In this document: piece after piece, positions 1 to 15,378 of the stretch
Position numbering within the stretch: the stretch's first letter is position 1
Layout of the letters: each line of letters begins with the position of its first letter
Origin: an uncultured Deinococcales bacterium
GTDB taxonomy: Bacteria > Deinococcota > Deinococci > Deinococcales > JAAFIG01
Direction: 5' to 3'
Length of the DNA stretch: 16,425 nucleotides
Assembly (NCBI GenBank): GCA_964247135.1
Contig: CAXTTL010000103.1
Span: 1-16,425, forward strand
The notes under the pieces: generated by a model
Told to the model about the DNA's origin: nothing
The model's database searches: none
What the model saw: only the letters and a program-made list of their open reading frames with translations
Made by a program: the position numbers and the translations under genes

Positions 1-807
1 GTTGGGGATGGCGCGTTCAATGGTTGTGCGGTTCAGGGCATCTGGCACAACTTCGATCAGCTTGCGTGAAATTTGGCGTTTGACCACCTCGAGAATCACT
101 TTATCGACCACGAAATTATCTGGTGTGACCGTTCCACTGACCACGGTTTCACCCAAACCGAAACTCGAATCGATGACTATTTTGCTGCGATCCCCGTTGA
201 TCGGATTGAGCGTCATGGCGACCCCTGCCGTCCGAGCATTCACCATTTTTTGCACGCCGACCGCCATCAAGACTTTTTCGTGCGGGAAGCCATTGTCAAA
301 ACGGTAGGCGATGGCTCGAGCCGTGTAAAGACTCGCCCAGCATTGACGGGTGTGCTCGAGCACGGCGGCAACGCCAACGACATAGAGGTAGGTGTCCTGT
401 TGTCCTGCAAAGCTCGCACCTGGCAAGTCTTCGGCGGTGGCACTCGAGCGCACCGCCACAGGTGGTTCAATCAGGTTCAATCGGGCAGACAAGCTGAGGT
501 ATTCGCTTTCGATGGCTTGGGCGATCAACGCTGGCATTGGCGCGGTTTGGATCAGGTTGCGAATCTCCAAACTCACCCGGTCGAGCATGTCCGTGTCCGC
601 CGTGTTCAAGCCCTCGAGCGCCGCATGAATCTTTGGGTTTAAACCGTTCTGTGCCAGGTGCAAAACGAAAGCTTCGGTGGTGATGGCAAAACCGGGAGGC
701 ACGATGAAACCATTGCGGGTCAATTCGCCAAGGCTCGAGCATTTGCCACCGACCTGTGCCAGCATCGTCTGGTCACAAGCTTCAAAGGGCAGAACAAACG
801 GATTCAT
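1..807 (-). CDS. PEP/pyruvate-binding (PEP synthase/PPDK N-terminal, ATP-grasp) domain protein, CreI/phenylphosphate-synthase-subunit-like; 3' end runs off the window
   Basis: Absent from the ORF track because it has no stop in the window. Translated by hand from ATG 807: MNPFVLPFEACDQTMLAQVGGKCSSLGELTRNGFIVPPGFAITTEAF...VAVRSSATAEDLPGASFAGQQDTYL...CWASLYTARAIAYR...SSFGLGETVVSGTVTPDNF. These are all hallmark PEP-synthase N-domain motifs. The ATG overlaps the P450 stop (ATGA, 804-807). Confidence 0.92.
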   Translation of the reverse strand, partial: MNPFVLPFEACDQTMLAQVGGKCSSLGELTRNGFIVPPGFAITTEAFVLHLAQNGLNPKIHAALEGLNTADTDMLDRVSLEIRNLIQTAPMPALIAQAIESEYLSLSARLNLIEPPVAVRSSATAEDLPGASFAGQQDTYLYVVGVAAVLEHTRQCWASLYTARAIAYRFDNGFPHEKVLMAVGVQKMVNARTAGVAMTLNPINGDRSKIVIDSSFGLGETVVSGTVTPDNFVVDKVILEVVKRQISRKLIEVVPDALNRTTIERAIPN

Positions 808-2057
808 ACGACCTCCCAACTGACTTTGACGCTTGATGGTCCTCGAAACGAGGTGTTTGCCGAGAACTCAAATTCTTGCTCGAGCAACCGCAACCCTGGC
901 AGGCGTGCCGTCAATTCCTCGAGTACAATTTTTGCCTCGAGACGTGCCAACGGCGCACCGAGGCAGTAATGAATGCCCAAACCAAACGAAAGGTGCTCTT
1001 TGGCGTTACTTCGAGTGACATCCAAAGTCTCGCCATCTGCGAAGGTGCGCTCGTCGCGGTTGGTGCTGCCCAAAAGCATCAGGATGTTTGCGCCTTCGGG
1101 CAAATCCACTGTGCCAACCCGAGTTGGTTTTTTGACCTTGCGCCGCCAAGCAAAAACGCTCGGACCAAAACGCAGCAATTCTTCAACCGCGTTTGGAATT
1201 AAACCAGGGTTTGCGCAAAGTTTTTCCCATTGCTGGCGGTGGCGCAGCAATTCCATGATGCCGTTGCCCAACAAATTCGAGGTTGTCTCATGTCCAGCCG
1301 TGAGTTGTGTGTACACCAAGGAGGCAATCTCGTCTCGAGAAATCTCATGCTGACCGTCCTGGGCAAGCCGTGCCAGATCACCAGGCAGATCATCTTGCGG
1401 ATTTGCAAAACGAGCATCAACCAATGCCAGGCAGTAATTCCAGTAACGCACCAAATTGTGGGCGTGCTCGACCTGTGCGTTGATCGGCAAATCGCCAAAG
1501 TTGAGCATCACCCGAGATTGCGCCCAAGTTTTGACGTTCGGTACGTCCTGGTCTGGAATCCCGAGCAGCATGAAAATCACCAGCGCAGGCAAATCGTAAG
1601 CCAGTTGCGCCACCAAATCAGCCTGACCGTCATGCTCGAACGCTGCGATCATCTGCCGCACCAACTCCCGAATGCGCGGCTCGAGCAACGCAATCCGACG
1701 TGGCGTGAACGCCTTATTGATAAACGAACGCAACCGCGTGTGATCCGGCGGCTGCCGTGCCGACAAACCCGAACTCACACTAAAACCACCCTCCTCGAGC
1801 ACCCGCACCACCTCGGGCGGACGCGACTTGTACGGGGTTTGGGTGTTCTCGCTCGAGAAAGTCTGCGGGTCTTTAAAAATATCTTGCGCGTCCTGATACC
1901 GCGTCACAATCCAGTACCCAAGTTCTGGACTGAAAAACACCGGTTCTTCGGCACGGGCTTGTTTGTAAAACCCGAATGGATCGCGGGTGTCAAAGGGTTT
2001 GAATTCTTGGGCGGCATGGAATGGGCAACCAGCAGCCGAGGCGTCTCGAGCGGTCAT
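804..2057 (-). CDS. Cytochrome P450 (417 aa), CreJ/CYP288-like by context
   Basis: I-helix AGHETT, K-helix EELLR, heme motif FGLGIHYCLG. Start reassigned to ATG 2057 (MTARDASAAGCPFH), which has a GGAGG RBS at 2065-2069. The ORF-track extension to 2264 runs through promoter and repeat DNA. Confidence 0.95.
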   Translation of the reverse strand: MTARDASAAGCPFHAAQEFKPFDTRDPFGFYKQARAEEPVFFSPELGYWIVTRYQDAQDIFKDPQTFSSENTQTPYKSRPPEVVRVLEEGGFSVSSGLSARQPPDHTRLRSFINKAFTPRRIALLEPRIRELVRQMIAAFEHDGQADLVAQLAYDLPALVIFMLLGIPDQDVPNVKTWAQSRVMLNFGDLPINAQVEHAHNLVRYWNYCLALVDARFANPQDDLPGDLARLAQDGQHEISRDEIASLVYTQLTAGHETTSNLLGNGIMELLRHRQQWEKLCANPGLIPNAVEELLRFGPSVFAWRRKVKKPTRVGTVDLPEGANILMLLGSTNRDERTFADGETLDVTRSNAKEHLSFGLGIHYCLGAPLARLEAKIVLEELTARLPGLRLLEQEFEFSANTSFRGPSSVKVSWEVV

Positions 2058-2107: not shown

Positions 2108-2142
2108 AGTATACGCTTTGGACTTTGGTTTCTCTTTGGTTT
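2108..2142 (-). promoter_or_regulatory. Putative P450-operon promoter: TATACT -10 box plus tandem 9-bp direct repeat (candidate SARP operator)
   Basis: Minus-strand TATACT at 2113-2108. AAACCAAAG occurs twice (2142-2134 and 2131-2123; 11-bp period), covering the -35 position, where no consensus -35 is present. Confidence 0.55.
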
Positions 2143-2374: not shown

Positions 2375-3901
2375 TTATTTGTGACCTGTTATCAGCAACG
2401 ATTCATACAATCCCGTCACCGCACTCGAGGGTTCACCCATGCCAAAACGCTCGAGCGAATGCAGGTACAAACGGTATTGACGTTTCAGTGCATCTGGACG
2501 GTCGGCGGCGTGCAAGGACAGCATCTTTTCCTGGTGCGCGATTTCGCTGCACGGTTCGAGTCGCAAGGCTTTATCGGCGTAGGTCAGTGCCTCGCTCAGT
2601 TGCTGGGTTTGGCGGTACAGGGCGCTCAGGCTCGAGAGCATTTTGAGGTACATTTCTTTAAACCAGTATCGCCGTCCCCAGCACCAGTCAAATTCTTCGT
2701 TGGCGGCGTACTCGAGCGGAATGTCTGCCAGAAAATCTCCGCTGTACAGGCGCTCGGCAGCTTGGTACGAGACAATGCCTTCTTGTAAATCGCCGTCTTG
2801 CACCAGGGCATTGCCCTGATAGCAAAGTTGTTGAAACATCGGGTAATCGAGCCAGGTATGCTCTGGGACTGCCAGGTAGTAGCGTCCCGCCTCGAGCGTC
2901 AGGTAATCCGCGCCCTGAGCGTTGGGTTGCAGCACATGGCGCAGGCTGTTGACGGTGTGATGCAAGCGGTTTAAACCAAGCTTGATCTGCTTTGTGTTCG
3001 ACCACAGCAGGTCAACCAGTTCCTCGCTGGTCGCGCCCTGCTCACCGCGAAACAACAGGTAGGCGAACAAGGTTTTGATTTTACGGGTCGCGCCTTTTGG
3101 AACGCGCCATTCAAAACTCGAGCCGTCGGAACGGTAAACACGCAGCGCACCGAAACACCTGATCTTCCATTGACCTTCCAAACTGCCCGTCAAGATCAAG
3201 GGTTCTGGCGAATCGACATGATGCGTTTGGGTCAAGACCTCGCTCGAATGCGTCACACCCAGCGCCACGGTCTGGGCAAAACTTGGACTGATGCCCTCGA
3301 GCCAATGCCGAAATTGGGCGCGTTCGTCAAGGCGAGCCAGAATGCGCGGCGGTACAAAATGCGGATTGTCATGAAGTCCGTCGCTTGCCATCATGGCGGG
3401 ATGGGCGTAGATGCTCGAGAGCAATTGTGAATCGAGCAGCAAGTGCTGGTTGTACAAGCAGGCAAATGCCACTGGAAGCTCGAGCGTCAATTCGTGAATG
3501 GCTGCCTCGTACTCGCGCAGGTAGACCGCGCCTGAGGGTGTGCGAATCGCCCAAGTCATCTCGACCAGGAACAACACACCCTTAGCGCCCCCATCGAGCG
3601 CGGCGTTTAGCGCGTTGCGAAAGGCTGCCATGATTGGAGCAACCCGCACAGGTGCGTTCTGAAAACCATATTGACTCGAGAGGGCGATTGAAGGGGTACG
3701 TTCAACGGTTTGTTTTTTCCGTGCCAAAGGCTTGAAAGCCGATTGCAATCCCGCCTGAATACTCGCAACTGAGTGTTCATCTTGAATGTACACGCAACGC
3801 CAAGCTTGGGCTTGAAAAGTTTCAATCAAACCAGCACAATGCGCCCACGGGGGCGCGTGTTGATCGTAATAAATGGCGATGTGCCGACTCGTTTGATTCA
3901 T
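2375..3901 (-). CDS. Transcriptional regulator: N-terminal MEDS (DcmR-type) sensor + OmpR-like winged helix + BTAD (SARP family)
   Basis: N-terminal HIAIYYD...EMTWA...REYEAAIH...ACLYN...AHP...NPHFVPP is a MEDS-like pattern. C-terminal [10 protein letters not shown]...KTLFAYLL...EELVDLLW...[12 protein letters not shown] (wHTH) and LYSGDFL...[12 protein letters not shown] (BTAD). ATGA-coupled to the CoA-transferase stop at 3898-3901. Confidence 0.82.
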
Positions 3902-5241
3902 AGGCGTTCAACAAAATTTGCCCTGGTTTTGGCGCGGACTTCCTCGAGTGTCGCGCCTGGCATCAGTTCGGTCAAGGTCAGTTTGGAATCCAAAAATTCA
4001 AACACCGCCAAGTCCGTAATCACCATGTCCACCGAAGCTCGAGCCGTTAACGGCAGCACGCATTCAGGCACGATTTTGCTCGAGCCATCGCTGTTGGTGT
4101 GCGTCATGGTGATAATCAATTTCTTTGCGCCGCTCGCCAAATCCATCGCGCCACCAACACCCAACAAAGGCTTGCCAGGAACCGCCCAGTTTGCCAGGTT
4201 CGCCGCTTCGTCCACCTCGAGTCCACCCATGATGGCGACATCCACGTGCCGTCCTCGGATCATGGCAAACGATTCCGCACTGTCAAAATAGCTCGCGCCA
4301 GGCAAGGCGGTCACTGGAATCTTGCCCGCGTTGACCGGATACTCGAGCGCACCACCATCTTCTGGCGAGGGTCCAACGCCGAGCATTCCGTTTTCGGTGT
4401 GCAAAATAATGCCTTGCTCGGGCGTAATCAAATCTGCAACCAAAGTCGGAATGCCAATACCAAGGTTCACCACATCGCCGCGCCGCAACTCGAGCAGCGC
4501 CCGCCGTGCCATGTGCATTCGGGCATCGTCCACCTTTTTGATGCTCGCCTTGACCGATGCGCTCGAGCCGAGCAATTCCAGCGTGACATTTGCTTGGACC
4601 AAATAATCCACGAAAACACCAGGGGTATGAATGCTCTCAGGCTCGAGTTCACCCACTTCGACAACCTCTTCGACTTCAGCGATCACCAGATCGGCAGCGG
4701 TTGCCATTGCCCGATTGAAATTTTGTTCGGTCATGCGGTACACCAAATTACCCGCCGTGTCCGCCTTCCACGCCCGCACGAGTGCCACATGCCCCCGAAT
4801 CCCAGGCACGAGCACATGCGGCACACCCGCAAAGTCCCGAGTCTCGAGGTTGGCGGCAATCACCGTGCCTGCCGAAGTGGGCGTGAAAAATGCGGCAATT
4901 CCCGCTCCGCCCGCCCGCAATGCCTCAGCGAGCGAACCCTGCGGAATCAATTGCACCTCGAGCGCCCCAGATTGAGCGGCGGCAACCGCCTCTGGGTTGC
5001 TGGTGAAAAACGAACCGATTGCTTTTTTCAGTTGCCCGTTTCTCAGCAAACGCCCGCCACCCAAACCAGCCTCGCCAACGTTGTTGCCCACAAACGTCAA
5101 ATCTCGAGTTTGGGTTTCGGCAAGCGCGTGAACCAAATGGACTGGATGTCCGGTCATGCCAAAACCACCAACGAGAATCGTGTCGCCGTTTTTGACCAGT
5201 GCGGCGGCTTGTTGGGCTGTGATTTGTGGAACTTGTTTCAT
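3898..5241 (-). CDS. 3-oxoacid (probably 3-oxoadipate) CoA-transferase, fused A+B subunits (PcaI-PcaJ-like)
   Basis: A-subunit motifs [19 protein letters not shown] and NFN..MATAA; B-subunit motifs [13 protein letters not shown] (catalytic Glu) and GVGGAMDL. All lie in one 447-aa ORF in a pca context. Confidence 0.9.
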
Positions 5242-5311
5242 GATTCTCCAAAATTTTATGAAAGTAGAAAAGCTTTTGGTGCGTTACAACTCGAGCTAAG
5301 TTGCTCGCTCT

Positions 5312-5349
5312 CCTCTCATCCCCAACCCTTCTCTCCCAGGAGAGAAGGG
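5312..5349 (+). repeat. REP-like palindromic repeat (CCCTTCTC...GAGAAGGG family)
   Basis: CCTCTCATCCCCAA-CCCTTCTCTCC-CA-GGAGAGAAGGG; nearly identical to 8094-8134. Confidence 0.8.
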
Positions 5350-5421
5350 AGCTTTGGTTTTTTCTTGTGTGGCTGAGATGATGCTCGAGAAGAGGATGTT
5401 GGTTAAGCAAGCACAGATATT

Positions 5422-6690
5422 TTAGATTCGTTCGATGATTGCGGCTTCGCCTTGACCAATACCAACGCAAAGGGTTGCAAGTCCGTACCTCGAGCGTTCG
5501 CCAAGCTGGGCACGGCGCTGAAGTTCGTGAATCAAACTGGTAACAATTCGAGCACCAGAGCAACCCAACGGATGTCCGAGAGCAATTGCACCACCGTTGA
5601 CGTTGGTGATTGACTCATCAATCTCGAGTTCGCGCAGCACGGCTAAAGATTGCACCGCGAAGGCTTCGTTTAATTCAACCAAATCCAAATCCTCGAGTTC
5701 CAGGTTGGCTCGAGCCAAGGCTTTTGGTACGGCTTTGACGGGTCCCAAACCCATCACGCGAGGATCAACGCCTGCCGCCGCACCACTGACCCAGCGTGCC
5801 AGAGGTTTGATGCCCAACGCATCAGCGCGGGTTTCACTCATCAGCACCAGGGCGCTCGCACCGTCGTTCAGACCGCTCGAGTTGCCCGCCGTGACCGTGC
5901 CATTTTTGCGAAAGGCGGGTTTGAGTTTGGTAAGTTGCTCGAGGCTGGTGTCGAGTTCCAGACCGAGTTCGGTTTTTTTAAAGCGTGGGTATTCGTCGGT
6001 GTCAAAAATGATCGGGTCACCCTTGCGGGTTGGGATTGGCACACCGACAATCTCGCGTTTGAAATAACCCGCGTTCATGGCAAACACCGCCCGACGTTGA
6101 GACTCGAGTGCGAAGGCATCCTGTTGTTCACGGCTGATCTCGCCGCCCTTGATTTTGCCCTCCAGACTCATTTGGTAAATGTTCTCGGCGGTTTCACCCA
6201 TCGCCTCGAGTGGAAACAAGGCTTCCATCGCAGGGTTGGGAAAACGCCAACCGAGCGTCGTGTCATAGGCGGTGACATTGCCCGACGGACCAAAGGCAAT
6301 CGGGTTTTTGGGCATGGCATACGGCGCTCGGGTCATGCTTTCGACACCGCCAGCCACGAAAATCTCGCCCTCGCCACACCGAATGGCTCGAGCGGCTTGG
6401 TTGATCGCGGCAAGACCACTGGCGCACAAACGGTTGACGGTGATTCCTGCCACTGAATGCGGCAAACCCGCCAGCAATGCGCCCATGCGTGCCACGTTGC
6501 GGTTGTCCTCGCCGGCTTGGTTGGCGCAGCCAAAGACCACCTCTTCGATCTCGAGCGGATCAATTCCAGCGCGGCTCACGGCTTCACGAATCACGATGGC
6601 TGCCAGATCATCTGGACGCACGCTCGAGAGTCCACCGCGAATCGAAGCGATTGCCGTTCGCACGGCACTGACAATCACGACTTCATGCAC
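5422..6690 (-). CDS. pcaF: Beta-ketoadipyl-CoA thiolase (acetyl-CoA C-acyltransferase)
   Basis: Motifs [30 protein letters not shown] and LCVGIGQG. Likely start is GTG 6690 after AAAGGA, overlapping the pcaB stop. Confidence 0.88.
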
Positions 6691-8029
6691 GTTTGATCCT
6701 TTCTGCTGCCTCAAGGACACGATCAACAAACACGTCGCTCGAGCCGAGGGTGTTTGCTTCAGTCAGTGCGTCCCAATCAATTTTGGCACTCACTTGTTCT
6801 TTTGCCACATCAATCAAGTGGCGTTTGCTGGCAATGGCTTCTTGCGCAATTTTGGCGCTCAATTTTTTGGCGCTAGATTTATCCATAAAAGCCGCCAGCG
6901 CAAATGAAAGCGCCTCGGACAGCATCAAGCCCTGAGAAGCTTTGATATTCTCGAGCATTCTTGCTTGGTTGACCACCAAGTTTTCGCTTAAAAAAACAGT
7001 TTTCTCGAGCGCCCCCGAAGTTAAACCGATCATTTGCCCGAGCGTCAACCACTCGAGTTGCATTCCGTGCGTGCCGCGTTCATGCTCGTGAAGCATGGCT
7101 TGATGCACACCACCCAGTAAATTCGTGTTCATGCGGGCGGCAGTCAAAATAAGTTCGCTGATGACTGGGTTGGATTTTTGCGGCATGGTGCTCGAGCCGC
7201 CACGTGATGCGTCTGAAGATTCGCGCAACTCGGCAATTTCGGATTGTGCCAGCAGCAGCACGTCTTGCGCGATTTTGCCCAGACTGCCCGTGAGCATCGA
7301 AAGCCATCCCGCGAGTTCTGCCATGTTGTCGCGTTGCGTGTGCCATGCCATCAAAGGCAGGTTCAAATCAAGTTCGCTTGCCAGGGCGCTCAAAACATCA
7401 AAACCTCGATTTCCGAGCGCCGCCAACGTCCCAACCGCACCACCAAACTGCACGACCATGACCCGAGGCTCGAGTTCTTTCCAACGTGCATGATGACGAA
7501 TCAATGGCGTAAGCCAGGAAGCCACCTTAAAACCAAACGTGATCGGCAATGCCTGCTGCGTGTGCGTTCTGCCCGCTATGAGGCTGTGCTGATGCCGCCG
7601 AGCGAGGCTGGCAAAATTGGCAATCAAACGCTCGAGGTGTTGCACCATCATCTCGAGCGCGACTCGCAATTGCAAGACCCGCGCCGTGTCGAGAATGTCC
7701 TGCGTGGTCGCCCCAAAATGCACGAAATCAGCCGCCTCGTCCTGCGCCAGATGTTCACGCAATTGCCGCACAAGTTCGATCACCGGAAAACCATCGTTCT
7801 CAATCCCAGCTTTTAAGCCTTCAACATCAACCTCGAGCGTCCGTGTTGCCGCATCTATCGCATTTGCTGCCTCGAGTGGAATGACCCCAAGTTTGCCTTG
7901 CGCCCGTGCTAATGCCGCTTCAACCTCGAGCATGGTTTTGACATGAACCGCGTCCGAGAAGATTTTGGTCACTTCAGGGTCAGCAAAACTCGAACCGTAC
8001 AATTGCGAATCGAGCGCCGAGAACGCCAT
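6683..8029 (-). CDS. pcaB: 3-carboxy-cis,cis-muconate cycloisomerase
   Basis: Fumarase/adenylosuccinate-lyase superfamily motifs [22 protein letters not shown] and [12 protein letters not shown], in a pca context. Confidence 0.9.
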
Positions 8030-8093
8030 TTAAGACACCATCCCAACAACTTGATTTTGCATTCCAGACTCAAAAAGCAGCAAGTTCCTGCTT

Positions 8094-8230
8094 CCCCTCT
8101 CATCCCCAACCCTTCTCTCCATCGGAGAGAAGGGTGTTTTGGCAACATCTTGAGATGCCAAAACATTACGTTCTAAACCCTCTCCCGCATATGCGGGAGA
8201 GGGTGGCGAGCTTGCTCGCCGGGTGAGGGC
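8094..8230. repeat. Composite REP/RIME-like cluster between pcaG and pcaB
   Basis: 8094-8134 is a copy of the 5312 repeat. 8135-8165 is a hairpin (TGTTTTGGC...GCCAAAACA). 8177-8204 is a perfect 28-bp palindrome ACCCTCTCCCGCATATGCGGGAGAGGGT, followed by GGCGAGC-TT-GCTCGCC-GGGTGAGGGC. Confidence 0.8.
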
Positions 8231-8249
8231 TTGATTTTGCCCCAATCTC

Positions 8250-8816
8250 TTAAACATCAAAAAACACCGTCTCGAGTTCGCCCTGCATGTGAATGTCAAA
8301 GCGATAGGTCGTGCCGTCTGTGGCATCCTCTCGGCTGGAAATCAAACTTTTTCGTCGTTGAGGATCGAGGGCGTTGAGTACAGGGTCGCTCGAGTTAGTG
8401 GTTTGATCGTTAAAGTAAATTCTGGTCACAAGATGAATCAGCAAACCGCGCATGAACAAGCGAACGTTGATGTGGGGTGTGGTGTCTCGAGCACCTGGTT
8501 TGATGGTGCGAAACCAGTACGCGCCGTTGACATCCGTCCCAGAACGTCCAAAGCCAGCAAAGTTGGGGTCAGCTTGGGCGTGTTGGGGGTCGGATTCGTG
8601 TTTGAAAATTCCTGCAGCGTCTGCCTGCCAAATCTCGAGCATCGCGTCTGGGATTGGTTGACCTTCGCCATCAAAAACCTGTCCGCGCAGCCAAATAAGC
8701 TCACCTCGAGTTTGCTCACTTACCATGATGTTTTCGCCATCCCGAATCAGGGCGTTATGAAAAAACGGTCCGACGGTTTGACTGGCGGTTTGTAAACTCG
8801 AGCCTTCAGTGTTCAT
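8250..8816 (-). CDS. pcaG: Protocatechuate 3,4-dioxygenase alpha subunit
   Basis: Motifs TASQTVGPFF, EIWQADAAG, TIKPG, PHIN...RGLL..L.TRIYF and YRFDIHMQGELETVFFDV. Start at ATG 8816. Confidence 0.94.
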   Translation of the reverse strand: MNTEGSSLQTASQTVGPFFHNALIRDGENIMVSEQTRGELIWLRGQVFDGEGQPIPDAMLEIWQADAAGIFKHESDPQHAQADPNFAGFGRSGTDVNGAYWFRTIKPGARDTTPHINVRLFMRGLLIHLVTRIYFNDQTTNSSDPVLNALDPQRRKSLISSREDATDGTTYRFDIHMQGELETVFFDV

Positions 8817-9531
8817 CGTCGTCTCCGTCTCGCTCGAAGGTGGTGGAAAGGCTTCCTGCGAGCACAATATCAAAGCGGTAGCCGAGCGCCCATTCTGGTG
8901 TTGTTAGCTCGAGGTCAAAATGCGAGATCAGGCGTGCTCGGGCGGCAGCATCAGGAATGCCGTTGTAAATCGGGTCAAATGGCAAGAGCGGATCGCCTGG
9001 GAAGAACATTTGTGTCACCATGCGCTCGAGAAAGTTGCGTCCAAAAACGCTGAAGTGAATGTGGGCGGGTCGCCAAGCGTTGTGGTGGTTGCGCCACGGG
9101 TACGCGCCCGGTTTGATCGTGGTGAAACGGTACGTGCCGTCATCGTCGGTCAGCACGCGCCCAGCCCCGCTAAAGTTTGGGTCGAGCGGCGCGGGATGTT
9201 GGTCGCGCAAGTGAATGTAACGCCCCGCAGCATTCGCCTGCCAAACCTCGAGCAGCGCATTTCGCACGGGTTTGCCGCGTTCATCAAGTACCCGTCCGGT
9301 CACGATAATTCTTTCACCCAAAGGTTCACCATTTTGAATAGCGTTACGTGTCAGGTCGTTGTCAAATTCTTGCAGGCTCGAGTGACCATACACCGGTCCG
9401 GTCAACTCGCTTAACGTATGCGCCAGCGGCACAAGCGCGTGATTTGGCGCTCGTTTGAGGCTCGAGGTGTAAGGCGGATGCAACAGCGCGGGTTGAATCC
9501 GCCAATCGAGGGTTTGAATCGTTTTGCTCAT
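8806..9531 (-). CDS. pcaH: Protocatechuate 3,4-dioxygenase beta subunit
   Basis: LSELTGP, WQANAAGRY.H and KPGAYPWRNHHNAWRPAHIHFS (Fe ligands). Start at ATG 9531 via ATGA overlap with pcaC. Confidence 0.95.
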   Translation of the reverse strand: MSKTIQTLDWRIQPALLHPPYTSSLKRAPNHALVPLAHTLSELTGPVYGHSSLQEFDNDLTRNAIQNGEPLGERIIVTGRVLDERGKPVRNALLEVWQANAAGRYIHLRDQHPAPLDPNFSGAGRVLTDDDGTYRFTTIKPGAYPWRNHHNAWRPAHIHFSVFGRNFLERMVTQMFFPGDPLLPFDPIYNGIPDAAARARLISHFDLELTTPEWALGYRFDIVLAGSLSTTFERDGDDDEH

Positions 9532-9917
9532 GATGCACCATCCTCGAGCCGTCCCTGTTCGGTCAAGATTCGTTTGGCAATCGCAAAGGCGCTGTTCGCG
9601 GCGGGTACACCCGCGTAGGCGGCGACGTGCATCAGCACCTCGCGCAGTTGTTCGGGTGTGACCCCCGTGTTGATGGTGGATCGCACGTGAAGCTCGAGTT
9701 CGTGTTCTCGACCCAAGGCGGCAAGAATGGCGATGGTCACAAGATGGCGAGTTTGACGCTCGAGTCCGTCTCGGGTCCAAACGCTGCCCCAAACGGTTTC
9801 GGTGATGTGTTGCTGGAAATCTTGATCGAAGGCGTTGGCGTTTTTTAAAGAGCGCTCTACGTGTGCGTCACCAAGCACTTCGCGCCGAACTTTCACGCCG
9901 TTTTCAAACTTGCTCAT
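9528..9917 (-). CDS. pcaC: 4-carboxymuconolactone decarboxylase
   Basis: Motifs RREVLGDAHVER, WGSVWTRDGL and YAGVPAANSAF. Start at ATG 9917 via ATGA overlap. Confidence 0.93.
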   Translation of the reverse strand: MSKFENGVKVRREVLGDAHVERSLKNANAFDQDFQQHITETVWGSVWTRDGLERQTRHLVTIAILAALGREHELELHVRSTINTGVTPEQLREVLMHVAAYAGVPAANSAFAIAKRILTEQGRLEDGAS

Positions 9918-10708
9918 GCAACCCCCTCGAGAAATTTTTTGATGATTCGCGCCATCGCTGCGGGTTGTTGAATGCACGGCAAATGCCCAGCATCTTCGAT
10001 CAATTCCAGCCGAGTCTCGAGGGTTTGCGCGAGTTCTTGACTGAGTGCCACAGGTGTACTTTGGTCATCTTGACCGCAAACCACCAAGGTTTTGACTCGA
10101 GCTTCAAAGATCATTTTGGCTGCCTGGTGTAAATCCGAATCGCGCAACGCCGTGCAAGTGGCGACATAACCCAATACCGATGTGCGCTCGAGCATGTTCT
10201 GAAAACCACGAACTCGAGCGGGTTGCTCGGCATGAAATCTCGAATCAAACCAACGCTGCATCACCGATTGCGAAATGGACTCGAGTCCTCCAGCTTGCAC
10301 CGCACCAATACGGGCGTTCCATGATTCTGCCGTGCCAATTTTCATGCCCGTATCGCAAAACACCGCGCCAGCCACACGCTCGGGAAACTGCGAGGCGAAC
10401 TCGAGCGCGATTTGACCTCCAACCGAAATCCCGACCAAGATCACACGCTCGAGTTGCAGATGCTCGAGCAAGCCAAAAAGATCGTTGGCAAAATCGGTGA
10501 TCGAATATGTTCCCGTCGGCGCGTCGGACAGACCATGACCGCGTTTGTCGTAACGCAACACTGGACGCTCGAGCCTGGCGGTCACACCGTCCCAGATTCG
10601 CAAATCGCTGCCAAGTGAATTGACGAACACCAACGGAATTCCTGTCAAATGCGTGTTCTCGAGTTGGTAATGAACGGTCAAACCAGCAACATTGGCAAAA
10701 TTGGTCAT
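9914..10708 (-). CDS. pcaD: 3-oxoadipate enol-lactonase
   Basis: Alpha/beta hydrolase with NSLGSDLRIWD, RYDKRGHGLS, GISVGG nucleophile elbow and AGHLPC. Confidence 0.92.
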   Translation of the reverse strand: MTNFANVAGLTVHYQLENTHLTGIPLVFVNSLGSDLRIWDGVTARLERPVLRYDKRGHGLSDAPTGTYSITDFANDLFGLLEHLQLERVILVGISVGGQIALEFASQFPERVAGAVFCDTGMKIGTAESWNARIGAVQAGGLESISQSVMQRWFDSRFHAEQPARVRGFQNMLERTSVLGYVATCTALRDSDLHQAAKMIFEARVKTLVVCGQDDQSTPVALSQELAQTLETRLELIEDAGHLPCIQQPAAMARIIKKFLEGVA

Positions 10709-11892
10709 GTCATCACCCTATCCGACTCGAGCATCCCAACGTAATTTTCGGCAAGCACTTGGGCTTGAGCGCGGCTTGAGACCACCTGCTCGAGTTGTGC
10801 CAGTTGCAGCTTGTGCTCATAAGGGTCGGAAAGGTCGTGACGGTGTAACATTGAGGTCATCCACCAGGAAAAATACTGCGCTCGCCACACGCGTTTTAAA
10901 CACGTTTGAGAATATTGACTGAGTGCCAAACTCGAGTTTTGCTGGTATTTTTGGGTCAAGGCGTTCGAGAGAATCTTAACGTCATTGATCGCCAGGTTCA
11001 TGCCCTTTGCACCCGTCGGTGGCACGATATGCGCCGCATCGCCCGCCAAGAACAAGCGCCCGTACTGCATCGGTTCGACCACAAAGCTGCGCATTCCGGT
11101 GATGCCTTTTTCAAAAATAGCGCCCGAAGTCAGCGAAAAATGTTGCGCCTCGAGCCGCGTTCCAAGCTCTTGCCAAATTCGTTCATCAGACCAATTGTCA
11201 ATGTTTTCATCGGGCGCAACTTGAATATAATTTCTCGAGACGCTGGCACTTCGCATACTGTGCAGCGCAAAACCGCGTTCGTGATTGGCGTAAATGAGTT
11301 CGTGGCTCGAGGGTGGCGCTTTTGCCAGAATCCCAAGCCAAGCAAACGGATAATGGCGTTCAAAAACCTTCAACACACCACTGGGAATCGCATCTCGGCA
11401 AATGCCATGAAAACCGTCCGTCCCCGCAATGTAATCACACTCGAGGTTACGTTCTTCGCCGTCCTGAAGAAACGTGATTTTGGGTTGGTTGCCCTCGAGT
11501 CCTGAGAGCCTTATTCCCGTGGCTTCAAAGTGCAAAGGCTGTGCGGACTCGAGTCGCGCCTTGATTAGGTCTTTAACGACCTCCTGCTGCCCGTAGACGG
11601 TAATCGAACGTCCACCTGTCAAACTTGGAAAATCAATGCGGTGCGTTTGCCCACCAAAGCGCAGCAACGTCCCCTCATGGCGCAAACCCTCGAGCGTCAG
11701 GCGTTCACCAAGTCCGTTTGATTTCAATAATTCTACCGTGCCATGCTCGAGCACCCCAGCCCGCACCCGTTTTTCGACGTACTCTCGAGATTTAGATTCC
11801 AGCACCACATTCTCAATGCCTGCACGGTGCAAAAGATGCCCGAGCAGTAAACCTGCTGGTCCTGCGCCAATAATGCCCACTTGGGTTCGCAT
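10705..11892 (-). CDS. pobA: 4-hydroxybenzoate 3-monooxygenase
   Basis: Motifs MRTQVGIIGAGPAGL, RAGVLE, DGFHG, GDAAHIVPPTGAKGMNLA and AENYVG. GGAGG RBS at 11897-11901. Confidence 0.96.
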   Translation of the reverse strand: MRTQVGIIGAGPAGLLLGHLLHRAGIENVVLESKSREYVEKRVRAGVLEHGTVELLKSNGLGERLTLEGLRHEGTLLRFGGQTHRIDFPSLTGGRSITVYGQQEVVKDLIKARLESAQPLHFEATGIRLSGLEGNQPKITFLQDGEERNLECDYIAGTDGFHGICRDAIPSGVLKVFERHYPFAWLGILAKAPPSSHELIYANHERGFALHSMRSASVSRNYIQVAPDENIDNWSDERIWQELGTRLEAQHFSLTSGAIFEKGITGMRSFVVEPMQYGRLFLAGDAAHIVPPTGAKGMNLAINDVKILSNALTQKYQQNSSLALSQYSQTCLKRVWRAQYFSWWMTSMLHRHDLSDPYEHKLQLAQLEQVVSSRAQAQVLAENYVGMLESDRVMT

Positions 11893-11987: not shown

Positions 11988-12797
11988 ATGGCAATTCTTG
12001 GAACGGTTTCTCAGGCTGGAGCGGTACTCGATTTGTTCAGCTTCCAACACCCAGAGTGGGGCGTGCGCCAAGTCGCCCGCACCCTGGCGATTCCTAAATC
12101 CAACGCCCATCAGTTGCTATCCTCGCTCGAGAACATTGGATTGTTGCACCGCATGGTCACAGGGCGTTACCGCCTCGGTTTTAAAATCCTCACGCTCGGG
12201 CAGTACCTCCTGACCAACACGCCTTGGCGCGACGTGGCACACCGCGCACTGGTCAAGCTCGAGGCACAATTTTCTGAAACGGTGCAACTGGCGGTCCTTG
12301 ACGGTGGTCGTTTGATTTACGTGGACAAAATCCTCGGCTCTGACCCGCAGGCGGTCAAGTCCAGCCACAGCGACATCGGTCAAGCCATCTCGCCACACGT
12401 CAACGCCCTGGGGCGCGTGCTGCTTGCCAGCAAATCATGGCGGGTGGTCTTGAACACGTTTCAACCATCTGGATTGCACGCCCACACGCCACACACCATC
12501 ACAGACCAGACCGCCTTCAAAACCGAACTCGAGCAGATTGCACGGCGAGGCTTTGCCCTTGATCTCGAGGAATCAAGAACCGGTGTTTGTTGCATCGCAG
12601 CCCCGATTCGCAACCACAACGGCGACATCATCGCGGCAATCAGCCTCAGTTTGCACTCGAGCCGAAATGAGGGCATTCCAGATTTCTTGCGTGATCAGCT
12701 TTTACAAACTGCCGCTTCGATCTCGAGGTCTATCGCCTTTGATCCAGAGTTTGTCAGTGAAAATCGCACGCAGGCGCGGCTGGCTGGTCGCAATTGA
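11988..12797 (+). CDS. IclR-family transcriptional regulator, divergent from pobA (PobR/PcaR/CreR-like role)
   Basis: N-terminal HTH (WGVRQVARTLAIPKSNAHQLLSSL...GLL...YRLG) and C-terminal ALGRVLLA, RGFALDLEE..GVCCIAAPI. Confidence 0.92.
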   Translation: MAILGTVSQAGAVLDLFSFQHPEWGVRQVARTLAIPKSNAHQLLSSLENIGLLHRMVTGRYRLGFKILTLGQYLLTNTPWRDVAHRALVKLEAQFSETVQLAVLDGGRLIYVDKILGSDPQAVKSSHSDIGQAISPHVNALGRVLLASKSWRVVLNTFQPSGLHAHTPHTITDQTAFKTELEQIARRGFALDLEESRTGVCCIAAPIRNHNGDIIAAISLSLHSSRNEGIPDFLRDQLLQTAASISRSIAFDPEFVSENRTQARLAGRN

Positions 12798-13085: not shown

Positions 13086-13101
13086 AAGGGTCGGGAATGA
13101 G

Positions 13102-13135
13102 CGACCATGCCCGCTAGGTGCGTTTTATGGTCAAG
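13102..13135 (+). mobile_element. 34-bp small hairpin insertion element, copy B
   Basis: CGACCATGCCCGCTAGGTGCGTTTTATGGTCAAG, flanked by AG (13100-13101) and AG (13136-13137). Confidence 0.7.
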
Positions 13136-13226
13136 AGAGGGTAGACAAAGCATTTGCAGATTTTATTTCAGGACAATTCCCAAACCCGTTCAAACTCGAG
13201 TATCGTTTTAAAATCGGAGGCACGCG

Positions 13227-14495
13227 TTGACATTGCTTGCACACGCCACAACCAAACCAGGCGAATTGCTCGAGGCTTCTACCATTCGGCAAACCTTGTC
13301 GTCGCTCGAGGGTCGGTTTAAGGGTCAAAAAGTGTTGGTTTTGATTCCAGACCACACGCGCACATTGCCACTGCCGCAACTCTTCAGAATGTTGGTCGAG
13401 GTGTTTGAAGGTGCTGCCAAACTCGATTTCATGATCGCGCTTGGCACACACCCGCCGCTCGAGGAAGCGCACATCCCGAAACTGGTCGGCATCAGTTCTG
13501 AAGAACGCAACACGATTTTTAAACACGTGGGTTTGCTCAACCATGCCTGGCAAGACCCGAATGCCTTGCAAACCGTCGGGGTTGTACCAGAGGCTCGAGT
13601 TCGAGAAATTGCAGGAGAATTCTGGCATCCGACGCTTGGCAGTGACGTGCAGGTGCGGCTGAATCGGGCAGCACTCGAGGCGGATCAAGGCGTGATTCTG
13701 GGACCGACTTTCCCCCATGAGGTCGTGGGATTTTCGGGGGGCGCAAAGTATTTGTTTCCAGGTATTGGCGGCGCAGACACGATTAACGTCATGCACTGGT
13801 TGGGGGCGCTTGCGGGAATTCGCAAAACCATTGGCGTGAAAGACACGCCTGTTCGCGCCTTGATCCACGAGGCGGCAAGTCATGTGCCAACGCCAATCAC
13901 ATTGATTTCTTTGGTGGTGCAAGGCGCGGGTTTAGCGGGCATGTTCGTTGGCGATCACATCACAGCTTGGGGTGCGGCTGCCGACCTCTCGAGCCAGCGC
14001 CAGATCGTTTGGGTGGACAAACCCTTCAAGCGCGTGTTGTCGTGCGCTCCGCCAATGTACGACGAATTGTGGACGGCGGGCAAAGCCATGTACAAGCTCG
14101 ATCCAGCCCTGGCGGACGACGGTGAACTGATTATTTACGCGCCACACCTCAGCGAGGTCAGTGTGGTGCATGGAAAGTATATTTTCGAGATCGGTTATCA
14201 CAGCGTGCTGTATTTTTTAAACCAATGGGATCGGTTTAAACACGCACCGCTGGGGGTGGTGGCACACAGCACCCACGTTCGAGGCGGTGGGGCTTGGGTC
14301 AACAATCAAGAGCAGTGCCGCATCAAGGTCACACTCGCCAGTCGTATCAGTCCCGAAGATTGCGCTCGGTTAAACTTGGGGTACATGAACCCAGACACGA
14401 TCAACATTGAGGATTTTGCGGGACTTGAAGATCAGGGCATTTTGCTGGTTCGCAAAGCCGGTGAGACCCTCTACCGCGTCAAGGAAACCCCATGA
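13227..14495 (+). CDS. LarA (lactate racemase)-superfamily nickel-pincer-dependent 2-hydroxyacid racemase/epimerase
   Basis: Motifs IPDHTR, IALGTH, PHEVVGFSGGAKYLFPG and HWLGA. TTG start with GGAGG at 13216-13220. Confidence 0.85.
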   Translation: MTLLAHATTKPGELLEASTIRQTLSSLEGRFKGQKVLVLIPDHTRTLPLPQLFRMLVEVFEGAAKLDFMIALGTHPPLEEAHIPKLVGISSEERNTIFKHVGLLNHAWQDPNALQTVGVVPEARVREIAGEFWHPTLGSDVQVRLNRAALEADQGVILGPTFPHEVVGFSGGAKYLFPGIGGADTINVMHWLGALAGIRKTIGVKDTPVRALIHEAASHVPTPITLISLVVQGAGLAGMFVGDHITAWGAAADLSSQRQIVWVDKPFKRVLSCAPPMYDELWTAGKAMYKLDPALADDGELIIYAPHLSEVSVVHGKYIFEIGYHSVLYFLNQWDRFKHAPLGVVAHSTHVRGGGAWVNNQEQCRIKVTLASRISPEDCARLNLGYMNPDTINIEDFAGLEDQGILLVRKAGETLYRVKETP

Positions 14496-14902
14496 GCGAC
14501 AAAGTATCCCTCGAGTTTCAGGAGATCAGCCAGCGACTTCATGCGCTGGTCTTGCCAGAATTTGATGTGGTGGTCGGCATCGCTCGAGGTGGATTGCTTC
14601 CCGCCAGTTTGGTCGCGCATCAACTCGAGCTTCCATTGTTTTTGATGCAACTCAATTACCGTGATGACGCCAATAACCCCCATAGGGCTGCGCCCGAATT
14701 GCAAAGACCGCTCGAGTTTGACTTGCAAGGCAGACGGGTGTTGCTGGTGGATGATGTCAGTGTCAGCGGCGCGACCTTCAACGTTGCTCGAGAACTCTTA
14801 AGTGGCGCAAGCATCACGACGCTGGCTTGCAAGGGCAAAGCCGATTTTGTCTTGTTTCCCGAGGTTGCCGCCTGTGTGAACTGGCCTTGGAATCTTTCAT
14901 GA
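14492..14902 (+). CDS. Small type I phosphoribosyltransferase-family protein
   Basis: VVGIARGGLLPA, PRPP-binding loop VLLVDDVSVSGATF and a C-terminal WPW. ATGA-coupled on both sides. Confidence 0.85.
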   Translation: MSDKVSLEFQEISQRLHALVLPEFDVVVGIARGGLLPASLVAHQLELPLFLMQLNYRDDANNPHRAAPELQRPLEFDLQGRRVLLVDDVSVSGATFNVARELLSGASITTLACKGKADFVLFPEVAACVNWPWNLS

Positions 14903-15378
14903 CTCGAGCCATCGTTGTCATGGGCGTTTCGGGTTCGGGCAAAACCACGCTTGGCATGGCTTTAGCCAAAAAATTAAATTGGACTTTTGCCGATGCCGAC
15001 GATTACCACCCACCCGCCAACGTTCAAAAAATGGCGAGCGGTGAGGCATTGACCGATGCTGACCGTGAACCGTGGTTAGAGCAACTTCACGCCCTGATCG
15101 AACAGCATCTTCTCGAGAATCAACCGCTTGTGTTGGCGTGTTCGGCTTTAAAAGCCAGTTACCGCCAGACTTTAACCGAAAATCTCGAGGGGGTGCAGGT
15201 GGTGTTCTTAACTGGCAGCCGCGAACTCATCGCAAGGCGCATGAACAACCGCGAGCATTTTATGCCAGCCAGTTTGCTCGAGTCGCAATTGAGAACGCTC
15301 GAGCCGCCAGAAAATGCGATTGTACTGAACATTGACCAGCCAATTGAGGACATGGTGAGTGAAGTTCTGAGGCAATGA
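14899..15378 (+). CDS. gntK: Gluconokinase (GntK/IdnK type)
   Basis: Motifs VMGVSGSGKTT, DADDYHPPANVQKM..G..LTD.DR.PWL, ACSALKASYR and HFMP.SLL.SQL.TLE.P. Start at ATG 14899 (ATGA overlap). Confidence 0.92.
   Translation: MTRAIVVMGVSGSGKTTLGMALAKKLNWTFADADDYHPPANVQKMASGEALTDADREPWLEQLHALIEQHLLENQPLVLACSALKASYRQTLTENLEGVQVVFLTGSRELIARRMNNREHFMPASLLESQLRTLEPPENAIVLNIDQPIEDMVSEVLRQ

Follow-up and report, generated by a model that had tools for sequence, protein, structure and literature searches.

Does the phosphorylate-then-oxidise route for cresol, of which Corynebacterium glutamicum offers, to our knowledge, the sole characterised example, also occur in the Deinococcales, and there in one cluster with the genes that would consume its product? 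The question is raised by positions 1-16,425 of contig CAXTTL010000103.1 (assembly GCA_964247135.1) from an uncultured Deinococcales bacterium; this whole stretch of 16,425 nucleotides (nt) is called the window below. The minus strand carries every gene from 11892 down to 1, and at the left end a cytochrome P450 gene is followed by a gene for an ATP-binding domain of the phosphoenolpyruvate (PEP) synthase type. An earlier reading made from the letters alone (the sequence-only reading) had proposed that this pair belongs to a cre-type alkylphenol pathway feeding pobA and pca. Our analysis argues that the left end of the window is very probably the start of a Cre-type alkylphenol operon in a member of the Deinococcales, with p-cresol as the most likely substrate. 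Three features carry the first part of the argument:

1..807, minus strand: 5' part (269 codons) of a predicted CreI-like stand-alone ATP-grasp subunit that runs off the left edge (PF01326)
804..2057, minus strand: predicted CreJ-like cytochrome P450 of 417 amino acids (Pfam p450, PDB phmmer, Foldseek)
2375..3901, minus strand: predicted MEDS-SARP regulator of 508 amino acids (PF14417, PF03704)

The P450 gene starts with an ATG at 2057, with GGAGG in front of it, and ends in a TGA at 806-804 that overlaps the ATG of the kinase gene (807-805); the shared ATGA at 807-804 is the overlap that the sequence-only reading had noticed. The encoded protein has an intact haem loop with its Cys motif (FGLGIHYCLG) and the I-helix motif AGHETT. 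In a phmmer search of the PDB, the entries 5xjn, 5gwe and 7ccf came out on top (E-value 1.8e-124, 419 bits), while the next group, CYP116B, reached 291 bits. An AlphaFold model built from an alignment of 27 relatives (predicted local distance difference test, pLDDT, 82) gave the same ranking in Foldseek, where the top entries are titled 'cytochrome P450 CREJ' (47% identity, template-modelling (TM) score 0.82) and the runners-up are the haem domains of CYP116B, with 36-37% identity. The title of 5xjn describes CREJ in complex with (4-ethylphenyl) dihydrogen phosphate. Amino-acid identity of at least 40% is the rule for membership in one CYP family, and with 47% identity across 401 aligned columns the protein would be placed in the family of CreJ, which we take to be CYP288. 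The expectation that this P450 groups with CreJ is thus borne out, and the ranks by sequence and by predicted fold both point to a P450 of the CreJ type.

The kinase gene is cut by the window edge at codon 269, and the genes downstream of it were read from related loci. A scan of the GTDB species genomes with the P450 as query returned nine loci. Four of them come from three Deinococcales metagenome-assembled genomes (MAGs) and encode P450s with 89-96% amino-acid identity (L001, L002, L003 and L006); two belong to Runella of the Bacteroidota (L004 and L005, the latter from Runella defluvii) with 57-58%; and the remaining three are distant (35-41%). L006 is colinear with the window over pcaIJ, the regulator and the 5' end of the P450 gene (90-95% nucleotide identity), and L001 over the 3' end of the P450 gene and the kinase gene (92%). 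The contigs closest to the window are those of Deinococcales MAGs, so the suggestion that the host is not an actinobacterium holds. The surprise attached to it is smaller than supposed, as non-actinobacterial metagenomic relatives are common; the relatives come from Deinococcota, Bacteroidota, Chloroflexota and non-corynebacterial Actinomycetota.

Against the PPDK_N profile PF01326 the kinase fragment aligns over positions 3-256 of 328 (E 5.8e-86). All 120 relatives among the matches listed are proteins of 324-395 amino acids with PF01326 only; the closest of those listed are 96%, 88% and 85% identical to the fragment and 361-362 amino acids long, with the same single domain, the top one being P0126 (96%, 361 amino acids). 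In L001 and L002 the open reading frame (ORF) of the kinase stops after about 361 codons and has PF01326 as its sole domain. Because the orthologues end there, the gene at the left edge is read as a split subunit, and the single-chain, three-domain architecture of PpsA, which would have spoken against a Cre-type kinase, is predicted to be absent. The PEP synthase models of NCBIfam rank first for the kinase at scores far below their cut-offs: NF005057 gives 301.6 for the window fragment and 366 for the full-length orthologue of L002, against a cut-off of 598. The database names of the relatives are nevertheless 'pyruvate, water dikinase' or 'phosphoenolpyruvate synthase', just the mislabelling that had been foreseen; one relative, P0179, is named 'phenylphosphate synthase subunit beta' in its source. 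A search of the PDB with the fragment found the 387-amino-acid split chain 9goj (E 1.1e-45, 159.3 bits), which we suspect to be HpeI, a name given to it in no record that we consulted. Taken together, the sequence comparisons argue for a two-component kinase with a stand-alone, CreI-like ATP-grasp subunit.

In L001 and L002 the kinase gene is followed by genes for a PEP-utilizers protein of 605-635 amino acids, an HD-domain protein, an aldehyde dehydrogenase, a second HD-domain protein and a short-chain dehydrogenase/reductase (SDR). The only Pfam domain of the first of these is a C-terminal PEP-utilizers His swivel (PF00391), and the protein scores 1021 bits against NF006150 (cut-off 650), a family named merely 'hypothetical protein'. 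Its swivel motif, MMSHAAIV, has a Ser before the His in both loci. According to the available portion of PMC12167813, Ser also precedes the swivel His in CreH and PpsA, and Cys in HpeH. The protein is therefore a probable CreH-like subunit with a Ser-preceded swivel His, encoded in L001 and L002 rather than in the window. Its N-terminal stretch of about 490 amino acids has no sequence match in the PDB, where the swivel domain alone is matched, and the first HD-domain phosphohydrolase (HD1) has no sequence relative there; HD1 and HD2 are 39% identical to each other. Of the partners expected beyond the left edge, the CreH-like subunit, the aldehyde dehydrogenase and the SDR are thus present in the related loci, and the place foreseen for a HAD phosphatase is taken by HD-domain proteins.

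The same gene order is found across phyla. L005 contains, in sequence, genes for the regulator, the P450, a PPDK_N protein (357 amino acids), a PEP-utilizers protein (604 amino acids), HD, aldehyde dehydrogenase, HD and SDR, and beyond the SDR a 2Fe-2S ferredoxin, a ferredoxin reductase and a major facilitator superfamily (MFS) transporter. ORFs of matching size and order are found in L004, where domains were scanned for the regulator, ferredoxin, reductase and MFS transporter only. The kinase gene adjoins the P450 gene in all four loci where the P450 is 57% identical or more and downstream DNA is available, and in none of the three loci whose P450 is 35-41% identical; the latter have no cre-like neighbours. 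Moreover, P450 and PPDK_N are joined in single chains (PF00067 plus PF01326, 491-730 amino acids) in 27 of the 120 P450 relatives listed, among them P0025, P0027, P0042 and P0082; one example is a protein of 685 amino acids from Solirubrobacter soli. In the three kinase fusions that were scanned the P450 is N-terminal and PPDK_N follows from residue ~455-470, its match beginning only at profile position ~77-82. One further P450 relative among the 120 listed (P0022) is fused to an HD domain, and this domain belongs with HD1 (60% identity) rather than with HD2 (40%). Given these fusions, the translationally coupled genes and a synteny that spans phyla, chance adjacency is far less likely than a functional unit. 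A prediction of the complex between the P450 and the CreI-like subunit, run twice without controls, gave a score of 0.00 both times and says nothing either way.

How might such an operon be controlled? The regulator gene, whose start overlaps the stop of pcaIJ as ATGA, encodes an N-terminal MEDS sensor domain and a C-terminal part composed of a winged helix and BTAD/TPR. In the structure model of the regulator (pLDDT 86.5), about 265 C-terminal residues superpose in Foldseek on AfsR (8hvr_I, E 5e-10, TM score normalised to the target 0.79), 8hvr being AfsR in a transcription activation complex; EmbR (2ff4) was also matched. The superposition on AfsR and EmbR indicates that the regulator would hold the full DNA-binding and activation module of SARPs, and the sequence and the model agree in predicting the winged-helix plus BTAD fold of SARP activators. 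The gene lies directly upstream of the P450 gene in L002, L006, L004 and L005 as well, and the regulator is a predicted member of the cre-type module. A further 105 relatives at E <= 1e-10, mostly MEDS plus BTAD, come from Chloroflexota, Deinococcus and others. In at least ten cases the length given for the longest contig of a regulator match equals that given for a kinase or P450 match (for example 11130, 131146, 5499, 9989 and 213202), a hint, though no proof, that the genes lie on shared contigs. One relative, P0254 from Deinococcus planocerae (660 amino acids), has SDR domains joined to a MEDS-BTAD regulator and bears the source name 'SDR family oxidoreductase'. Two short elements lie between the regulator and P450 genes:

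2123..2142, minus strand: tandem direct repeat AAACCAAAG-AG-AAACCAAAG with an 11-nt period, 66-85 nt upstream of the P450 ATG, a candidate operator
2108..2113, minus strand: TATACT, a possible -10 element read from the sequence, 9 nt downstream of the repeat

SARPs use direct repeats with 11-nt spacing beside a -10 element. The tandem of AAACCAAAG is present in a single copy in the window, with 0.01 expected, and exactly once, just upstream of the P450 gene, in all five loci that hold that region, Runella included (L002 3514-3532, L003 809-827, L006 2942-2960, L004 4732-4750, L005 9903-9921); it is absent from the other four loci. The repeat core is identical between Deinococcales and Runella, and about 90 nt upstream of the P450 gene are conserved across the Deinococcales copies. 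A consensus scan of 1950-2450 found no terminator and no full sigma-70 pair of -35 and -10 elements, the lack of the latter being expected of an activator-dependent promoter. Upstream of pcaIJ, a half-site AACCAAAG (5352-5359) stands single, with no tandem partner. The tandem repeat is probably the site from which the regulator activates the P450 promoter. Searches of the literature for the MEDS domain together with cresol returned nothing relevant.

The spacer between the regulator and P450 genes measures 317 nt in the window and about 1.8 kb in L002 (1736-3598), where its ORFs have no Pfam match. The last 57 nt that match the window there, at window 2400-2456, are found a second time at L002 2482-2538, and also at L003 103-159.

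Upstream of the regulator gene, on the strand of the P450 and kinase genes, lies the set of genes that would take over the product:

3898..5241, minus strand: pcaIJ, fused 3-oxoadipate CoA-transferase of 447 amino acids (TIGR02429 and TIGR02428)
5422..6690, minus strand: pcaF-like thiolase (TIGR02430 498, below the cut-off of 597; TIGR01930 443, above the cut-off of 240)
6683..8029, minus strand: pcaB, 3-carboxy-cis,cis-muconate cycloisomerase (TIGR02426 387.6, cut-off 355.75)
8250..8816, minus strand: pcaG, protocatechuate 3,4-dioxygenase alpha (TIGR02423 212.8, cut-off 126.25)
8806..9531, minus strand: pcaH, protocatechuate 3,4-dioxygenase beta (TIGR02422 357.1, cut-off 296.4)
9528..9917, minus strand: pcaC, 4-carboxymuconolactone decarboxylase (PF02627 CMD, E 3.5e-24)
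9914..10708, minus strand: pcaD, 3-oxoadipate enol-lactonase (TIGR02427 264.2, cut-off 255.85)
10705..11892, minus strand: pobA, 4-hydroxybenzoate 3-monooxygenase (TIGR02360 548.4, cut-off 538.7)
11988..12797, plus strand: divergent IclR-family regulator, PcaR/PobR-like (PF01614 and PF09339; TIGR02431 130 bits, below 284.75)

All eight genes of the pobA-pca cluster were found, and the protocatechuate branch of the beta-ketoadipate pathway is, as far as family assignments tell, complete. PcaI and PcaJ occupy one ORF (TIGR02429 at residues 8-217 and TIGR02428 at 240-444, both over their cut-offs), and the pcaF gene passes the general thiolase cut-off only. The starts of the pcaF-like thiolase gene, pcaG, pcaH and pcaC were refined, and with them pobA, pcaD, pcaC and pcaH are chained through ATGA overlaps; the ORF of pcaC had lain concealed beneath a pcaH ORF that was spuriously extended. 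An ORF of 98 amino acids at 8030-8326, tried as pcaC, was rejected as spurious: no family matches it, its translation is of low complexity, and its position coincides with intergenic hairpins. The claim that upper and lower pathways stand in one supercluster, with the P450 and kinase genes downstream of a complete pobA-pca set in the same orientation, agrees with this arrangement, the regulator gene and the 317-nt gap being what lies between.

The gaps between pcaG and pcaB (8030-8249) and between pcaF and pcaIJ (5298-5372) hold short GC-rich hairpins, e.g., CCCTTCTCTCC..GGAGAGAAGGG, and share a 39-nt repeat (5298-5336 and 8082-8120, 87%). The hairpins and this repeat look like small dispersed intergenic repeats. 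A 37-nt repeat is found at 2230-2266 and 13100-13136 of the window (92% between the copies) and again at 3858-3894 of L001, in the intergenic gap between the CreH-like and HD genes. On the pobA side the window continues with genes for a LarA-like putative hexonate epimerase, a phosphoribosyltransferase-like protein and a gluconokinase; an ORF of 263 amino acids at 13131-13922 on the minus strand, antisense to the LarA-like gene and with no family match, is probably spurious. Homologues of this sugar-acid block (71% nucleotide identity; window 13227-15378, L002 11395-14845) flank the far, SDR end of the cluster in L002, where they are joined by a 6-phosphogluconate dehydrogenase gene. The flanks differ, and the aromatic supercluster therefore appears to be placed differently with respect to the sugar-acid block in the genome of the window and in that of L002.

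In the pathway that we propose, for which the accessible parts of PMC7764795, PMC8796525, PMC9549646 and PMC12167813 supply the published scheme of the Cre enzymes, a two-component dikinase (the CreI-like plus the CreH-like subunit) would phosphorylate the phenolic hydroxyl with ATP through a phospho-histidine, and the CreJ-like P450, drawing electrons from unlinked redox partners, would hydroxylate the methyl group of the aryl phosphate. The SDR and the aldehyde dehydrogenase would oxidise the product to 4-phosphobenzoate, from which one or both HD-domain phosphohydrolases would strip the phosphate to give 4-hydroxybenzoate. PobA and PcaHG-B-C-D-IJ-F would then carry 4-hydroxybenzoate to succinyl-CoA and acetyl-CoA. 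The MEDS-SARP regulator would activate the P450 promoter via the tandem AAACCAAAG repeat. The linkage to pobA and the presence of an aldehyde dehydrogenase suggest that the substituent is a methyl group, which would make the substrate p-cresol.

Several observations weigh against this assignment. The partner genes are seen in related MAGs (~92% and 81% nucleotide identity) and not in this genome. The likeness to CreJ is an overall match of sequence and fold. Among the Cre proteins CreJ alone is in the PDB, and the assignments to CreH, CreI, CreD, CreG and CreC are putative; L002 and L005 encode an aldehyde dehydrogenase, an SDR and a pair of HD proteins as candidate counterparts of CreC, CreG and CreD. 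There are two HD paralogues here and one phosphohydrolase in the C. glutamicum list. The kinase fragment is closer to the archaeal PEP synthase 9dae (238.8 bits) than to 9goj (159.3 bits), and therefore the ATP-grasp subunit alone does not identify the subfamily. Finally, the ferredoxin and ferredoxin reductase that the sequence-only reading expected are absent among the scanned ORFs of the window and of the 10 kb downstream in L002, although both are linked to the cluster in Runella (L004 and L005); the electron supply of the P450 is left unexplained in the Deinococcales loci, as no ferredoxin or reductase is linked there.

The alternative that survives best keeps the chemistry and changes the substrate, which would be another 4-alkylphenol, 4-hydroxybenzyl alcohol or a lignin-derived methoxylated cresol. 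One CreJ structure (5xjn) holds 4-ethylphenyl phosphate, the two HD paralogues could mean more than one phosphorylated intermediate or substrate, and the accessible text of PMC9549646 describes how CreH, CreI, CreJ and CreD, supplied with redox partners from elsewhere as surrogates, were applied to several alkylphenols. We nevertheless consider this alternative unlikely: the SDR and the aldehyde dehydrogenase suit a methyl group that is oxidised to a carboxylate, the direct linkage to pobA suits 4-hydroxybenzoate as the product, and ethyl, longer or methoxy substituents would need other enzymes, of which the window, L002 and L005 show none.

A different phenol-phosphorylating route, either the Hpe route for hydroxyphenylethanone or the anaerobic one of phenylphosphate synthase and a carboxylase, is very improbable. 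HpeHI and PpsAB are, according to the part of PMC12167813 available, two-component homologues of the same split architecture, and the source name of P0179 points the same way. Yet the scanned ORFs of L002 and L005 include neither a biotin-dependent (HpeCBA) nor a UbiD-type (Ppc) carboxylase, the kinase is translationally coupled to a CreJ-like P450 and fused with one in other lineages, and the swivel has Ser-His here and not the Cys-His of HpeH. Least probable of all is an ordinary PEP synthase or a split enzyme like rifampicin phosphotransferase (RPH) standing next to the P450 by chance, as the top NCBIfam and PDB names of the ATP-grasp part (PEP synthase and RPH) might suggest, because every NCBIfam score is far under its cut-off, the orthologues stop at 361 amino acids without a PEP/pyruvate-binding domain, which refutes the idea for the orthologous loci, and both synteny and fusions tie the kinase to P450 and HD genes.

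The Cre-type operon set out above is best understood beside its known counterparts. The cre operon of C. glutamicum, as given in the accessible part of PMC7764795, has the order C-D-E-F-G-H-I-J (cg0637-cg0645) and encodes an aldehyde dehydrogenase (creC), a phosphohydrolase (creD), the redox partners of the P450 (creEF), an alcohol dehydrogenase (creG), the kinase subunits (creHI) and the P450 (creJ); the enzymes are also listed in what was available of PMC8796525. The locus described here shares with it the CreJ-like P450, the split dikinase (361-amino-acid ATP-grasp and ~600-amino-acid His-swivel subunits in the related loci) and, clustered together in L002, genes for a putative phosphohydrolase and for dehydrogenases of the alcohol and aldehyde types. 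It differs in its order (regulator-J-I-H-HD-aldehyde dehydrogenase-HD-SDR), in its Deinococcota host, in the two HD paralogues, in the lack of a linked ferredoxin and reductase in the Deinococcales loci and in the direct joining of the operon to pobA-pca, and it has a MEDS-SARP regulator with a tandem-repeat site. HpeHI of Rhodococcus rhodochrous GD02 and PpsAB of Thauera aromatica likewise pair a ~40-kDa ATP-grasp subunit with a ~70-kDa substrate/His-swivel subunit and act through a phospho-histidine, as far as the accessible text of PMC12167813 goes. The split dikinase here resembles them in architecture, whereas their routes go on with carboxylases instead of a P450 and HpeH has a Cys, where the CreH-like subunit has a Ser, before the catalytic His. 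The ATP-grasp and swivel domains are homologous to those of RPH and PEP synthase, which are single chains of ~800-880 amino acids, in contrast to the split protein here with its scores far under the family cut-offs. The regulator has the C-terminal SARP module fold of AfsR and EmbR, as well as an 11-nt-period tandem site beside a -10-like hexamer, but it carries a MEDS N-terminus in place of a receiver, FHA or NB-ARC domain, and its host is not an actinomycete.

The window and its Deinococcales relatives also have a conspicuous excess of one hexamer. CTCGAG, the commonest hexamer of the 16.4-kb window, occurs there in 126 copies (7.7 per kb) against 3.2 +/- 1.7 expected, and its density is 6.3-7.9 per kb in L001, L002, L003 and L006 and 0-0.05 per kb in Runella. 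Within genes the sites fall in every one of the three codon phases, and others lie between genes. The Leu-Glu dipeptide is written CTCGAG in 75 of 88 cases, with 11.5 expected from codon usage, and elsewhere CTC makes up 69 of 459 Leu codons. The window and L002 have in common 10 of 15 sites in a segment of 81% identity, 10 of 13 in one of 77% and 6 of 12 in one of 72%, clearly more than would be expected if the six positions were neutral. HIP1 is the highly iterated palindrome of cyanobacteria, and by analogy CTCGAG looks like a highly iterated palindrome resembling it; a literature search found no report of a CTCGAG excess.

The pathway itself is already known. New are the host phylum, the joining to pobA-pca, the gene order, the second HD paralogue and the MEDS-SARP regulator with its cross-phylum candidate operator. 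In the literature searched, which included few subscription journals, we found no description of a cre-type cluster outside Corynebacterium, and nothing relevant on Deinococcus together with p-cresol or P450. Also new are the unnamed metagenomic proteins, fused forms included, which point to a widespread type of cluster. A bolder reading, which we offer tentatively and think rather doubtful, is that the regulator, the AAACCAAAG operator and the operon form a self-contained cassette that crosses phyla, and that the P450 associates with the dikinase and the HD phosphatase so that aryl-phosphate intermediates are passed along instead of being released, an idea hinted at by the natural fusions of a P450 with a kinase or an HD domain. 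If it were true, a MEDS domain could for the first time be assigned an aromatic or aryl-phosphate ligand.

For the Cre-type operon, the joining to pobA-pca would mean a complete cresol-to-tricarboxylic acid cycle gene set on one strand, the cre part being read via related loci. The conserved regulator and its putative operator are a candidate alkylphenol sensor, and the natural P450-kinase fusions are candidates for the kind of biocatalysis already done with CreHI-CreJ-CreD. Because its kinase is often annotated as PEP synthase, surveys of aromatic degradation probably count the pathway too rarely.

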